Below are positions 29,701 to 35,700 of a DNA stretch of 64,000 bases, piece by piece. Positions within the stretch are counted from its first letter, which is position 1. Each line of letters begins with the position of its first letter. Source of the stretch: Escherichia coli (lineage in GTDB: Bacteria; Pseudomonadota; Gammaproteobacteria; Enterobacterales; Enterobacteriaceae); the NCBI RefSeq assembly GCF_022846255.1, contig NZ_AP025682.1; one strand, 5' to 3'. A program made the position numbers.

Positions 29701-32700
29701 TTAATTTCACCATGTTATAGTTTTATTTGTGAATTAAATCAATTATGGCGATGAATTACAAGGGGTTAAATGCTGCCGCAGCATAGCGATATTGAAATAG
29801 CCTGGTATGCTTCGATACAGCAGGAGCCGAATGGCTGGAAGACCGTCACCACACAGTTCTACATCCAGGAATTCAGTGAGTATATTGCGCCACTGCAGGA
29901 TGCTGTAGATCTGGAAATCGCAACGGAGGAAGAAAGATCGTTGCTGGAGGCATGGAATAAATATCGGGTGTTGCTGAACCGTGTTGATACATCAACTGCA
30001 CCTGATATTGAGTGGCCGGAAGAACCAGACACAATGTAAGCGAAAAAGAAAAACCGCAGACACGACGTATGCAGGACGTGCTGCGGTTGGCTGGTGAACT
30101 TTCGATAGTGCGAGTATTGAATGATTTCCAGCCGTTACCGATTTTACGTATTTTTTGTATGGGAGGATTTGCATCTCCTCCCACCGATCCTCCATGACTT
30201 TACGCCACAGTCTCTAGGACTGCTATGTGCCAATAGCAGACATCCACACAATTATGTAAAATAGGCTAGTGAGTCAGCATTCATGTAGTTCAGACCATCT
30301 ATAGCTGAAATCACGATCGCTTAACAGTGATTCACTCATAACTGCTAGCGAGCAATGTTCTTGTTTGAACCTCAAATTGAAACCACAAAATCGAAAGGTT
30401 AAATAATCGATTATCCAAATAGAAGGCAATTCAATGGGAAATCACGATTTTATTAAATATATTATATTATTTGGCTTGTCTGGGATAATGTTGGCTATGC
30501 TAGTGCTCTTTATTTCCTCTGTAGCATATTATTTTTTCACCCATAATAAAGGAGTTCTTCAGTATATAATTAAAACTATTTCCATAGGCCTTGTAACTAT
30601 TCCAGTCGCAATAATACTAATCGTTGCACTCGTCCATTATGTTGTCTGGCAAAAAGGGATTTCAACGGCATGGCGTTTTATATTCCACTCGACTAAAACA
30701 ACAACCGTGAATGATATTGCTAATGCTGAATCAGAAGATGTTATTGTTCACCTTGTTCATGGAACATTCGAGACGAATGCATCTTGGACACAACCTGAGT
30801 CAAAAATGTGCAAATCAATTAACTCAAGGAATCCCAATATTGGTATATCTCGATTTAAATGGGATGGCAAAAACTCTGCATCCTCTCGTAAACAAGCGGC
30901 ATATCAATTAGGAATGCATATTGATAACTCTCCTGCAAAATACAATTATATTATTGCACATAGCCATGGGGCAGCTATTGTAAGAGAAATGTCTTATTTA
31001 CGAAGTGATATTGCAAAAAAAATTCAAGGCGTATGTCTTTTGTCACCACCGTTCATCTTTCGACGTAGGATAAAAAGAACGTCAGGTACTTTAATTAATC
31101 TTATTGATATTAGCGGAACTTTGGCCATTCAATTGTTACTTGCAGCACTTTTTGTACCTTTGAATCTATATAATATTAATTATGCAGCAGTAATTTTTTT
31201 TGTTTCAATATTTGCAGAAATTATAATCTCCAAAAAATATAAAAAAGAATTTTTGCAGGAAGTTGAGAGTGGCGAGCACTGTGAAGCGGTTGATTTTAGG
31301 AATGTTGAAATTTATCACGCAATTGGTGATGAAGCCGATTCAGGCCTAAGATTTGTAAGTTCACTTCACGAAGGATGTTTTTCAATTCTTTCCCAGCTAA
31401 AAAAAGCTCAAGTAAGTCATAAAAAGCTAACACATTGGTCAGCAGTTTTAAGCTACCTATTTTATATTTCCATGAGTGTATTAATATGGTTCTTCTATCC
31501 TGAAGAAAAATCATGGATTATAGTATTATTAGTAAGCTTTGTATTAACTTCTATTTCTCACATTTGGCAAAGGTTGAAACCATCAAAGGATGTTCCTCAT
31601 GTTTTACTTATTGCAGCAATACCAGTTGCGATTTTTTCATTTTGGTTGGCTGTAGCTAAGGCCATAGCTTATGGAGATTTGCGATTAATATTTTGCCCGG
31701 AAGTTTTTATTGCATCATCTGAAACTCCAGCTGGAGATCATAAAGTTATTAAATTTGCTCCACAGAATGATGGTATATTAATACACTCAACACACTCGCA
31801 TCCGGAGGCTATAATTAATGTTTCTGAATGGTTATATTGCTCTGAGAATAAAAGGGTAAATGGTGAACCATAGATTAATATAACCACCATAAATTAATTT
31901 GTAATATACTTCCCTGCTAAATTCGCAGGGGAGTATAAAAATATACTAACTCAGTGGAGTCTTGTGCTGAGTTAGTACATGTTAACAAGATATTTATTCA
32001 CCACTAAATAATTAGCTAGAACAATAAGAATAATTTTGGGCAGTAAAGACAGGATGTAAACTACACTTATTCCAGTATGTTGGTTATCGTAGTTATATAT
32101 GATGAGCTCTAAAGTCCGCTTCTCGCTCATAACAGACATTCACTACAGTTATAGTAGAAGGTATGCATGCTGAGTGGGGAAAGTGTGAAAGAAAAGAAGA
32201 CTGCTGCGTCGTTTGTCGTCACGTTTATCTTCATTGGTTATGCAAGTAGTAATACAAGATGGGACAAAACTGAGGCACACATAGCTTTGTACTGGATTGC
32301 TAGGCTTTGTGCTCTTCGATAGTGGTTAAGGTGGATCACTCCACCTTTTCATCAATCCAGTCCGCCCACCATTGCATCATTTCTCTGCGTTTATCGAGAT
32401 ACTGAGCATGGTTGTAAATCCCACGCACAGATCCGCCGTTGGCATGTGCCAGTTGCACTTCAATAGCGTCAGCAGGCCATTCGTGCTCGTTCATAATTGT
32501 GCTGAATTCATGCCTGAATCCGTGACCGCTTTCCAGACCCTCATAGCCGATTTGTTTGATCACAAGCAATACCGCGTTCTCGCAGATTGGCTTCTTCTTA
32601 TCGTTGCGCCCGGCAAAAACAAACTCTGATACTGGTTTAGTGATGGAGCTTAGCGTAGTGAGAAGTTCAACCACCTGGTCTGACATAGGAACAACATGAA

Positions 32701-35700
32701 TCTTGCGGCCCTTCATCACACTGGCGTCGATAGTGATAATCCTGTTTTCAAAATCGACGTTCTTCCATTGCATGGAGCGAAGCTCTTTCGTTCTTAGGGC
32801 TGTGTAGCGTAAAACTTTGGTCGCAATGAGCGATATGATGCTTCCTGAAAATGTTGCCAGTGCTTTGTTGAATGCAGGGATCTGGTCTGCTGGGAGAAAC
32901 GGGAAGTTCTTCTTGCGGTATCCCTTCATGGCGTCAGCAAGGTCAGGTGCCGGGTTATATTTAGCCCTACCAGTGACAATAGCGTAACGGAAAACCTCGC
33001 CGCATCTTCTGCGGGCTTTGTTGGCTCGCTCCATTGCACCGCGATCTTCAAATCTGCGGATTACTTCCAGCAGTTGCATCGGCTCAATATCCTGAATTTC
33101 AAGGCCGCCGATGATAGGTAAAATGTCGTCATCAAACATTTTTGCAAGTTCAGTTGCATAGCCTACTGACCAGACTTGCTTCTTGTGCTCGTACCATTCC
33201 TTGTAAATCGCACTAAAGGAATTGTTGTTAGACGAAGCCTTTTTCGCTTTTACCGGATCGATGCCAACCGAGATGTCTTTCCTCGCGGTCCATGCTTTAT
33301 CTCTTGCCTCCTGCAAAGTCATTAGCGGATATTTTCCTACGGTCAGGATTTTCTCCTTACCGTCAATCTTGTAGCGAAGCTGCCATACCTTTTTCCCTGA
33401 CACAGGGACATAAAGGTACAGGCCATTACCATCGAGTAGGCGGTATGGTTTTTCTTTCGGCTTTGCTGCTTCAATCTGCTTAACGGTGAGCATGGGTAAA
33501 AATCCGGTGGGTAAAATTATTTTATCCACTTTTTACCCGTCATGGAGTGCGGCTGTCAACGATCTGACGCGAACCATTACGAACTGTGAATCTACGGAAG
33601 GCTTGATATTCAGGGGATTTTGCGGACTGGTACGGATGGGAGCGAACTGATAAATGGTGTCCCCTGCAGGAATCGAACCTGCAATTAGCCCTTAGGAGGG
33701 GCTCGTTATATCCATTTAACTAAGAGGACAATGCGGCATGAGTATACCCGCTAATGGACTACGGAGTAAGTACACAGCCGCTCGATTGCTTAAACCCTCG
33801 CCATTTATGCCGGGTTTTTATCATTTTTCTTAATGTTTTCCGCACGTTCTGCTTTTTGGCGTGCTTCTGCTTTGCGCTTGTTGCTCATGTCGTTACGAAT
33901 CTGTGCATGACTCATTAACGCGAAGATAAAGGTGCCGCCGCAGATGTTCCCCGCTAAAGTAGGTAGTGCGAAGGGCCAGATGAAATCGCTCCAGTGCAGC
34001 GTACCGTTAAACACCAGATAGAGGATTTCTACAGAACCGACAACGATGTGGGTGGTGTCACCCAGGGCAATAAGCCAGGTCATCAATATAATCACCACAA
34101 TCTTTGCCGCACCCGCTGCAGGAAACATCCATACCATAGTGGCGATCAGCCAGCCGGAAATGATCGCGTTGGCAAACATCTCGCTGGGGGTGTTCTTCAT
34201 CACATCCATGCCGATTTTGACAAATGCATCGCGAGTTTCTTCATTGAAGATTGGCATATATTCAAATGCCCACGCCGCAATACCTGTCCCGAGAATATTA
34301 CCCAGCAGCACGACGCCCCATAACCGCATAAGTAAGCCAACGTTGCTCATTGTCGGTTTTTGCATGACGGGTAGTACCGCAGTCACGGTGTTTTCGGTAA
34401 ATAATTGCTGGCGGGCCATAATGACGATAATAAAACCAAAGGTATAACCGAGATTCTCCAGCAAGAAGCTGCCCGGCACACCTTCCAGTTCGACATGAAA
34501 TATCCCTTTTGCCAGTAATGAAGCGCCCATCGACAGGCCCGCCGCAATGGCTGACCACAGTAGCGCCATTGCGTCGCGTTCCAGCTCTTTTTCACCATCC
34601 TGGCGGATATGCTCATGAATTGCCATCGCCCGGGAGGGGAGTCGGTCTTCATCTATTTCTATTTTTTTGCCGCGCTCTTTTTCTTCGCTCTCAACTTCAA
34701 TTTCGTCGCTGTGTTGATCAATTTTGTCGTTGTCCATGGTCTCTTCTCTTGAATTAGCACGTATAGCTAAAGCGTAGCGGCTTTTTTGCTCGCAACTGGC
34801 GGGAGTTACTCTGAAAATGTAGAAAAGGCCGCGTTTGCCTTTTTCTGTTTCTATAGAATCAAGTAGCCTACAGGGCGGCGATTACCAGGCTATGATCAAA
34901 TCAGCAAATCAGGGCGTCTGGACATCAGTTGACGTGCTGTTACAATCGCCCACACCTAAACAGGCGGATACGGTATCGTTCCGTCATGGATGGCAAACTG
35001 CATAAGCCATAAAAAAACAGGGAGACATTTATGAAGCTTCGCCTGTCGGCGCTTGCTCTGGGAACTACGCTTCTGGTGGGGTGTGCGAGTTCCGGTACAG
35101 ATCAGCAAGGGCGTTCTGACCCGTTAGAAGGGTTTAACCGCACTATGTACAACTTCAACTTCAATGTATTAGACCCGTATATTGTTCGACCGGTCGCTGT
35201 CGCCTGGCGTGATTATGTTCCGCAACCTGCGCGTAACGGTTTGAGCAACTTTACCGGCAACCTTGAAGAACCTGCGGTGATGGTTAACTACTTCTTGCAG
35301 GGCGACCCTTATCAGGGGATGGTCCACTTTACCCGCTTTTTCCTGAATACCATTTTGGGAATGGGCGGCTTTATTGATGTTGCAGGGATGGCGAACCCGA
35401 AACTGCAACGGACTGAACCTCACCGCTTCGGTAGTACGCTTGGTCATTATGGTGTGGGTTATGGGCCGTACGTTCAGTTACCGTTCTACGGTAGCTTCAC
35501 GCTGCGTGATGACGGTGGTGATATGGCGGATGGTCTTTACCCGGTTCTTTCCTGGCTGACCTGGCCGATGTCTGTGGGTAAATGGACGCTTGAAGGGATA
35601 GAAACTCGTGCGCAGTTGTTGGATTCCGACGGTCTGCTGCGTCAGTCCTCCGATCCTTATATTATGGTGCGTGAAGCGTACTTCCAGCGTCATGATTTCA

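Follow-up and report, generated by a model that had tools for sequence, protein, structure and literature searches.

A probable KplE1/HK620/Sf6-type attL module at the argW end of an Escherichia coli prophage

The 3' end of argW in the Escherichia coli contig NZ_AP025682.1 is very probably occupied by a phage of the KplE1/CPS-53, HK620, and Sf6 type, whose attL-side recombination module spans positions 32258 to 33669 of the 64,000-nucleotide stretch of DNA that we analyzed (here referred to as the window). This attL junction is already known and well studied, and it holds nothing new for site-specific recombination because the module occurs in about one-third of complete E. coli genomes (intS with its P' arm in 1863 of 5426) and has been dissected in K-12. 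Novelty of a mild kind is confined to a rare cargo cassette; the int-argW junction itself has none.

Junction of the prophage with argW

The sole tRNA gene found by ARAGORN is argW, encoding tRNA-Arg(CCU) (33655-33729, minus strand), with an Rfam tRNA match of 63.4 bits; the gene is intact, is identical in alignment to K-12 argW, and is the bacterial host gene of attB. The 16-nt core published for KplE1 (PMC2951348), CTGCAGGGGACACCAT on the minus strand, is matched exactly at 33654-33669, where it takes in the final 15 nt of argW, with CCA, and one further nucleotide, so that the first-pass annotation was right to expect an att core overlapping the tRNA 3' end near 33,655-33,680. Identity with the empty-site attB stops at 33654, and identity with the attP of HK620 and Sf6 begins at 33669. 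In a four-way comparison, the window reads B-core-P', the empty site of strain 300709 reads B-core-B', HK620 and Sf6 read P-core-P', and K-12 attR reads P-core-B'. Judged from these alignments, the junction is a textbook B-O-P' attL hybrid, and the core is the site of strand exchange and the true boundary of the element. The empty argW site in strain 300709 supports the proposed boundary, as the chromosomal flank in the window equals attB up to the core. The right-hand end of the prophage is fixed to the base, with phage DNA up to and including 33653, the core at 33654-33669, and chromosome from 33670 onward. Empty argW sites occur in 911 of 5426 complete E. coli genomes, many of them 100% identical to the reconstruction.

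Integration would have followed the scheme known for this family. The attP of the incoming phage would have borne the 16-nt core, a heterobivalent IntS would have exchanged strands within CTGCAGGGGACACCAT, and argW would therefore have been regenerated. The integrase would stay beside argW and be transcribed away from the tRNA from a promoter in the P' arm, and the excisionase, TorI or HkaC, which is encoded across attP from int, would come to lie beside attR, at the opposite prophage end. Because attP lies between int and the recombination directionality factor (RDF) gene, no excisionase is expected beside int, and none should be looked for there. An earlier suggestion was to look upstream for a small excisionase-like open reading frame (ORF); tblastn with TorI over the window found no such gene. 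Excision would need IntS, TorI, and IHF, and IntS and TorI bound to attL would also repress intS; both the three-protein excision reaction and negative autoregulation of intS have been shown for K-12 and HK620 substrates (PMC2951348, PMC3509656). The IntS-TorI system is the one that is predicted to govern mobility of this prophage, with a TorI-type RDF supplied from the far end, an assignment that is useful for annotation.

KplE1/CPS-53 of K-12 (IntS, TorI, and attL/attR at argW; Panis et al. 2007, 2010) shares with the window the insertion site, the 16-nt core, the 161-bp spacing between int and argW, the PintS sequence inside attL, and an integrase with 99% amino acid identity; the P' arm differs by four substitutions and IntS by three. 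The K-12 element, however, is a remnant of 10.2 kb in which gtrABS follows intS. In the window, the late region is lambda-like and of full length, and a different cargo lies downstream of intS. HK620, Sf6, CUS-3, and HK633 match the window at 96 to 97% nucleotide identity over a stretch that begins at the outer edge of the core, takes in int, and ends about 50 bp past it. In the HK620 and Sf6 annotations, hkaC (the TorI homologue) is followed by the attP core, the promoter, and int, and in Sf6 a cargo gene comes next, with convergent tail genes after it; the layout of the window matches this order, with the RDF side lying outside the window. These two phages, assigned to Lederbergvirus in their records, and CUS-3 differ from the window in its lambda-type terminase, portal, tape-measure, J, and side tail fiber genes, and in cargo, which is oac in Sf6 and a hydrolase-like membrane protein here. 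We take the genus of HK620 and Sf6 to be the P22-like podovirus group and CUS-3 to be P22-like as well.

Integrase gene and P' arm

The integrase gene, intS (32336-33493, minus strand), was identified from its ORF and its identity to K-12. It encodes a tyrosine integrase of 385 amino acids when counted from the K-12 ATG, or of 397 when counted from the GTG farther upstream that the ORF caller selects. The ORF and ARAGORN coordinates agree with the earlier description of a 385-residue product, a gene end at 32336, and a distance of 161 bp to the 3' end of argW (bases 33494-33654), with both genes on the minus strand. IntS is identical to its K-12 counterpart (CPS-53/KplE1 prophage) at 382 of 385 residues and is 98 to 99% identical to the integrases of HK620 and Sf6. 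It shares residue Q242 with these two viable phages, whereas K-12 IntS differs there. The protein has the Pfam domains Arm-DNA-bind_3, Phage_int_M, and Phage_integrase, and in alignment R234, H324-x-x-R327, H350, and Y360 are identical to those of the functional HK620 and Sf6 integrases; from knowledge of the family, we presume that these residues are the catalytic ones. Its domains thus have the arrangement found in arm-binding tyrosine integrases, and both intS and attL are intact.

The likeness extends to lambda Int, a heterobivalent tyrosine integrase that uses arm and core sites and requires both IHF and an RDF. The lambda attP is downstream of int, and its int and xis genes, cotranscribed from pL, remain together at one prophage end. 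In the family to which the window belongs, by contrast, attP lies upstream of int, integration splits int from the RDF gene, and the int promoter is inside attL (PMC2951348).

The P' arm of attL (33494-33653, minus strand), delimited by alignment to K-12 attL and by the promoter string, contains the intS promoter, with the -35 element TTGACA at 33559-33554 and the -10 element TAAAAA at 33535-33530. The -35, the -10, and the start-site string are unchanged from K-12, and the four substitutions in the 161-bp spacer relative to K-12 attL all lie between the core and the -35. Because the K-12 intS start has been mapped by primer extension (PMC2951348), transcription in the window would by transfer begin at about 33524/33523; the gene is oriented away from attL, with its predicted promoter inside it. 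The same stretch of the K-12 P' arm carries IntS arm-type and TorI binding sites (PMC2951348), and the 220-bp attL fragment used in vitro, as defined by its primers (PMC3509656), corresponds to window positions 33470-33689. By analogy with these K-12 experiments, we infer IntS and TorI binding sites, promoter use, autoregulation, and competence for excision in the window. The four P'-arm substitutions fall where the TorI and IntS arm sites lie in K-12. A consensus promoter and terminator scan gave counts that were not above those of shuffled sequences and missed the experimentally defined PintS.

At its distal end, the recombination module closes with a conserved intS 3' flank (32258-32335, minus strand), recognized by alignment of int 3' flanks and common to K-12 CPS-53 and other argW prophages. 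By blastn, the K-12 match reaches 32258 and the match to DETEC-S565 reaches 32223. A 6-bp hairpin read from the sequence, GGTGGA/TCCACC (32330-32345), spans the intS stop codon.

Spacer distal to intS

Between the cargo gene and intS lies a spacer of 462 bp (31874-32335) that had been described as AT-rich with two strong hairpins, a description that holds: its GC content is 36.6%, compared with about 50% in the neighboring kilobases, and the 117-nt stretch 31874-31990 folds far better than its shuffles (z = -5.95 on the plus strand and -4.96 on the minus strand; 0 of 200 shuffles as good). The spacer is a mosaic of three pieces: the short int 3' flank, a segment of lambdoid b region, and, from a swapped-in cargo cassette, the 3' tail. 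The b-region segment (32114-32305; about 88% identity by blastn to Lambda_2E9 and many others) is the right flank of the variable cargo slot in lambda-like phages, and lambda likewise has a b-region cargo slot beside its tail fiber genes; a 51-codon ORF (32167-32322, plus strand) lies largely within this segment. The cassette tail (31874-32137) holds both hairpins, is 99.6% identical to a sequence in the P2-like prophage of TB06052, and is conserved in copies from Pectobacterium, Enterobacter, and Proteus. A 55-codon minus-strand ORF (31972-32139) was rejected as a gene, as it is not intact in these three genera, where only a hydrophobic C-terminal piece of about 30 residues recurs; its product matched no family and did not resemble K-12 YodE. 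An Rfam search over 29900-34000 returned the tRNA and a subthreshold IS009 fragment and no other family.

Hairpin 1 has the stem CCCTGC (31912-31917)/GCAGGG (31925-31930), which extends to 13 pairs over 31905-31937 and is kept in all four genera. Hairpin 2 pairs TACTAACTCAG (31944-31954) with CTGAGTTAGTA (31967-31977) in 11 perfect pairs around a 12-nt loop; it occurs in the E. coli copies only and was rejected as a conserved structure because it is missing from the four-genus consensus fold. With UAUAUUUUUAU after it on the minus strand, hairpin 2 looks like an intrinsic terminator.

It is improbable that the hairpins are functional parts of recombination or its regulation, such as an int terminator, a sib-like element, or sites for accessory proteins. 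They do sit 360 to 430 bp downstream of intS and on its strand, and the U-rich tract that follows hairpin 2 on the minus strand could halt intS read-through. Both, however, lie inside a cassette that recurs at 99.6% identity in a P2-like prophage that has no intS, and hairpin 1 accompanies the cargo gene in islands of Pectobacterium, Enterobacter, and Proteus; moreover, the sequence found this far from int in K-12, DETEC-S565, HK620, and Sf6 is unrelated, and the terminator scan made no call at either hairpin. In their sequence context, the hairpins belong to the mobile cargo cassette and not to the int/att module, and, conspicuous as they are, they should not be taken for att or int regulatory elements. 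The cargo gene and intS converge on this spacer, and their transcripts probably end at the hairpins, a terminator role that we infer.

Extent of the prophage

A lambda-like siphovirus prophage very probably fills positions 1-33669 and continues past position 1. Positions 5900-29000 match isolated lambda-like phages of 46 to 48 kb at about 96% identity with about 92% coverage. The earlier reading that the tRNA 3' end has no copy elsewhere in the window was upheld by searches with a 28-mer (up to three mismatches), a 15-mer (up to two mismatches), and the 16-nt core, of which only the attL copy was found at up to three mismatches; blastn with the K-12 attR region likewise found no P-arm sequence in the window. 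Nothing here contradicts the proposal that the other att site lies beyond position 1, as the window contains neither a second core, nor a P arm, nor a torI gene. The attR site and torI would be expected about 11 to 15 kb to the left of position 1, and in the related argW lambdoid prophage of strain 48, torI and a core matching at 15 of 16 positions lie 11.5 kb upstream of the equivalent of window position 1. The far end should present a core CTGCAGGGGACACCA(T/G) after a P arm ...CCCCTGCTGCTTCAAGTAGATGT, with a 66-residue torI/hkaC product encoded about 70 bp away. Because lambdoid phages are mosaic, the unseen left part is not predictable with certainty. The closest match to positions 1-6500 (strain EC38, 96.5%) was rejected as a guide to the left end, as that prophage lies at icd, a different site, and has a different integrase, with lambda-type int/xis.

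This match to a prophage with another integration module lends something to the idea that a stranded remnant forms the intS-argW junction: a fossil module in a prophage whose far end (attR and torI) was lost or rearranged, leaving the element locked in the chromosome. The left end does lie outside the window, argW prophages are highly mosaic in cargo and length, and the K-12 argW element is itself a 10-kb remnant. Yet even that remnant, with both att sites and torI retained, is able to excise (PMC2951348). In the window, intS and attL are intact, and the late region has long intact ORFs and is about 96% identical to viable phages. We consider a stranded remnant unlikely.

Far less credible still is an arrangement of tandem elements, in which a small int-plus-cargo islet (about 30.0 to 33.67 kb) lies by argW and is abutted at about 29 to 30 kb by a second element, a lambdoid prophage that has an att site of its own. 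Positions 29995-32222 are compositionally distinct (33 to 38% GC) and missing from otherwise similar argW prophages, and a truncated tail-fiber-assembly fragment lies at 29770-30039. No att-like core repeat or second integrase was found between 29 and 32.3 kb, here or in closely related genomes, however, and the window holds no second core or tRNA fragment. Other genomes show the same frame, from tfa and a methyltransferase to intS and argW, with torI and a core at the far end of the lambdoid genes, and Sf6 and K-12 have int, cargo, and a convergent tail gene in this order within one phage genome. The odd segment is accounted for by replacement of a cassette between b-region flanks that are conserved.

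Cargo cassette

The whole cassette (about 30222-32137) is AT-rich and 1.9 kb long. Its main part (30222-31873, plus strand) consists of a conserved 205-nt leader and a gene (30434-31873, plus strand) for a 479-residue, membrane-anchored, divergent serine-hydrolase-like protein; a conserved 260-nt tail with hairpin 1 completes the unit. A structured RNA in the leader was rejected, as the sequences were too few and showed hardly any compensatory changes.

The label "hydrolase" given to this gene in the first-pass annotation is tentative. Pfam gave nothing above threshold, and searches with PADLOC, PHROGs, and single-sequence comparison to the PDB gave no significant match. Weak signals of an alpha/beta hydrolase came from the profiles Ser_hydrolase (E = 0.0014) and TIGR03056 (E = 0.024), from Hydrolase_4 in 11 of 21 homologues, and from a profile match to the alpha/beta hydrolase PDB 6tj2 (E = 0.0012); the motifs AHSHG, GDEAD, and HSTHSH are invariant among the homologues. 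Taken together, these sequence signals hint at a hydrolase. The protein is unrelated (BLASTP E = 3.8) to the alpha/beta hydrolase that, together with ompT, forms the cargo of common argW prophages.

The cassette may tentatively be regarded as an uncharacterized, self-contained "moron," possibly a new single-gene antiphage or superinfection-exclusion system, a role suggested by its movement as a unit and its recurrent defense-gene neighbors. With the same ends, it is found in unrelated mobile elements: in the b region of a lambda-like prophage, in the tail-fiber/sheath cargo slot of a P2-like prophage, in a Pectobacterium integrative and conjugative element, and in genomic islands of Enterobacter and Proteus. 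Known defense genes recur beside it, namely, an OLD-nuclease and UvrD pair, a SNIPE-domain protein, and Cap15 with a CD-NTase.

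Integrase gene and argW locus

The sole tRNA gene in the window is argW, a tRNA-Arg(CCU) gene at 33655-33729 on the minus strand, and comparison with the annotation of K-12 and other strains identified the surrounding gene order as the E. coli argW neighborhood, with yfdC (33805-34737, minus), mlaA (35031-35786, plus), and fadL (35844-37190, minus). The mlaA-fadL gap (35787-35843) is only 57 bp and lacks yfdF, which sits between these two genes in strain DETEC-S565, in QEC11-421, and in K-12.

The adjoining integrase gene, intS, occupies 32336-33493 on the minus strand and encodes 385 aa from an ATG at 33493, the start used by both the K-12 annotation and K-12 transcript mapping; a mechanical ORF listing gave 397 aa from an upstream GTG. 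Exactly 161 bp (33494-33654) separate intS from argW, as in K-12, and these coordinates agree with the first-pass annotation. The domain makeup of the protein (arm-binding, central, and catalytic) is that of a heterobivalent tyrosine integrase. The protein matches the IntS protein of the cryptic K-12 prophage CPS-53 (KplE1) at 382 of 385 positions and is 98 to 99% identical to its counterparts in HK620 and Sf6, both viable phages. Position 242 is Gln in the window, HK620, Sf6, and DETEC-S565 and Leu in K-12.

Att core and element boundary

KplE1 is flanked by a duplicated 16-nt core, CTGCAGGGGACACCAT (Panis et al., PMC2951348). The window has a single copy of the reverse complement of this core, at 33654-33669, made up of the last 15 nt of argW (CCA included) plus one more base. 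An att core overlapping the argW 3' end had been predicted at 33,655-33,680; the place was right and the length slightly too great. The tRNA 3' end was not found a second time in the whole window, even with two to three mismatches allowed, in line with the earlier reading.

To compare the site with an empty argW locus, as the first-pass annotation had proposed, we built an artificial attB (1,201 nt) from two pieces of K-12: the yfdC-argW side as far as the end of the core and the dsdC side beyond the attR core. An uninterrupted copy is present in 911 of 5,426 complete E. coli genomes and is 100% identical in many of them; strain 300709, where yfdC, tRNA-Arg, and dsdC are adjacent, is an example. 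Over 45 nt on either side of the core, the flanks are B-core-B' (bacterial arms) in strain 300709, P-core-P' (phage arms) in the attP sites of HK620 and Sf6, P-core-B' in K-12 attR, and B-core-P' in the window. Because free-phage homology starts exactly at 33669 and empty-site identity stops exactly at 33654, the 16-nt core is established as the element boundary.

Aligned with K-12, the sequence from argW into the first codons of intS shows only four differences, each of which falls between the core and the -35 hexamer. On the minus strand, the window retains the intS promoter elements of K-12: -35 TTGACA (33559-33554), an 18-nt spacer, and -10 TAAAAA (33535-33530), with the transcription starts, a T and an A seven bases downstream, mapped over from K-12 to 33524/33523. 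Window 33470-33689 is the counterpart of the 220-bp attL fragment competent for excision in vitro, whose ends are set by the primers given in PMC3509656.

The features of the IntS-TorI family that can be read in the window are all present, namely, IntS orthology, the core sequence, hybrid flanks (bacterial arm, core, phage arm), and the orientation of int with its predicted promoter inside attL. The module is common: intS and the P' arm are present in 1,863 of the 5,426 genomes, and the intS module is also in many deposited phages, including Stx-converting ones. The system was already known, and the junction had been read correctly. The finding is useful for annotation, and some novelty lies only in the rare cargo cassette beside the int module.

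In the K-12 CPS-53 locus, 16 nt just upstream of torI (11776-11791 of the K-12 segment compared), separate from the attR core, match the argW T-arm region (window 33669-33684) perfectly; the match could be due to chance or be the trace of an older att event.

Excisionase and far end of the prophage

The annotated order in HK620 and Sf6 is hkaC/gene 18 (the homologue of the excisionase gene torI), a small ORF, the attP core, the promoter, and int. Because attP lies between hkaC/gene 18 and int, integration splits the excisionase from the integrase, a separation published as the "new paradigm" of the IntS-TorI family (PMC2951348). The suggestion that an excisionase be sought beside int followed the lambda model, which is inapplicable to this layout, and neither a TorI homologue nor P-arm sequence was found anywhere in the window. 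A related prophage at argW in strain 48 carries torI and a 15/16 core copy 11.5 kb left of the equivalent of window position 1. By analogy, attR should lie about 11 to 15 kb past position 1. The mosaicism of lambdoid phages makes this placement uncertain: window 1-6500 finds its best match within a prophage at icd whose integrase is a different one.

Prophage body and mosaic structure

Left of int lies a lambda-like prophage read on the plus strand, with ybcN, ninE, and Q-type genes, a porin gene, and lysis genes, followed by terminase, portal, head, and tail genes, J, lom, side tail fiber, and tail fiber assembly. Window 5900-29000 has about 96% identity over about 92% with isolated lambda-like phages of 46 to 48 kb. 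The OmpC/NmpC-type porin gene (2077-3234, minus), between the Q-type antiterminator and the lysis genes, is in the classic lysogenic-conversion position; its 385-aa length equals that of IntS by coincidence.

Local blastn resolved the stretch from the tail genes to int as a mosaic. Tail fiber assembly, methyltransferase, and a truncated tail-fiber-assembly fragment (28901-29994) are common to other argW prophages, such as that of DETEC-S565; 30076-30240 and 32114-32305 match lambda-like b-region flanks of a different cargo gene at about 88%; the cassette (30222-32137) matches at 99.6% in 1 of 5,426 genomes, in a P2-like prophage of TB06052 between the tail fiber assembly and tail sheath genes; and the int 3' flank (32258-32335) is common to K-12. 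The class I SAM-dependent methyltransferase gene (29045-29713, minus; PHROG 2132, a function-unknown family), between the tail fiber assembly gene and the cargo slot, is itself common to other argW prophages. A partial Rfam IS009 match (29900-29996, plus; 94.8 bits, short of the gathering score of 117, and clipped by the search-range start) sits inside the truncated tail-fiber-assembly fragment, 29770-30039.

In the AT-rich 1.9-kb cassette, the gene for a 479-aa protein is preceded by a conserved leader of 205 nt and followed by a conserved tail of 260 nt. The left and right ends of the cassette are the same in lambda-like (window), P2-like (TB06052), Pectobacterium (conjugative element, ICE), Enterobacter (chromosomal island), and Proteus (island near smpB) contexts, and known defense genes often adjoin it. 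The junctions coincide with short inverted repeats, CTGCTAT-GTGCCA-ATAGCAG at 30219-30238 and ATGAGC...GCTCAT at 32108-32137; stretches of ~20 bp there are common to the lambda-like and P2-like contexts, and the TB06052 cassette is bracketed by AATCTGACAGTC and GACTGTCAGATT. These repeats may be cargo-exchange sites.

Spacer hairpins

The 462-bp spacer between the cargo gene and intS (31874-32335) is AT-rich (36.6% GC) and does contain the two strong hairpins originally noticed. Hairpin 1 has a 6-bp GC-rich core (31912-31917/31925-31930) extending to 13 pairs over 31905-31937, and hairpin 2 has a perfect 11-bp stem (31944-31954/31967-31977) with a 12-nt loop. Folding of a 117-nt stretch with both gave z scores of -5.95 (plus strand) and -4.96 (minus strand), and none of 200 shuffles was as good. 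Because both lie within the cassette, they fall outside the recombination module. Hairpin 1, ~30 nt past the cargo gene stop codon and without a downstream U-tract, is kept in all four genera, with eight pairs retained and two varying on one side only; hairpin 2 is confined to E. coli copies of the cassette. On the minus strand the hairpin 2 stem is followed by UAUAUUUUUAU, and the hairpin thereby resembles an intrinsic terminator that would act on transcription from intS. A consensus terminator scan called neither hairpin. We infer that the two would mark transcript ends between convergent units.

An ORF of 55 aa (31972-32139, minus) has a hydrophobic C terminus, a stop codon overlapping hairpin 2, and its first codons in the conserved lambdoid flank. 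It is broken in other genera, where only an ~30-aa hydrophobic piece recurs, and its status as a gene is doubtful.

Cargo protein

The cargo gene (30434-31873) encodes a 479-aa membrane-anchored, serine-hydrolase-like protein unrelated to the alpha/beta hydrolase beside ompT at the equivalent spot in common argW prophages. A database search found homologues in 58 clusters, in Enterobacterales, Burkholderia, and others, a few bearing the source names lipase or alpha/beta hydrolase. Three motifs, AHSHG, GDEAD, and HSTHSH, do not vary among 21 aligned homologues, 11 of which have weak Hydrolase_4 matches, and the profile has a weak match (E = 0.0012) to an alpha/beta hydrolase of solved structure. 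The protein itself had no hit at the usual thresholds in Pfam, PHROG, PADLOC, or, searched as a single sequence, the PDB. The initial label of hydrolase is therefore plausible, not established. Neighbors of the homologues include an OLD-nuclease/UvrD pair, a SNIPE-domain gene, and Cap15 with a CD-NTase, associations that hint at a role in defense.
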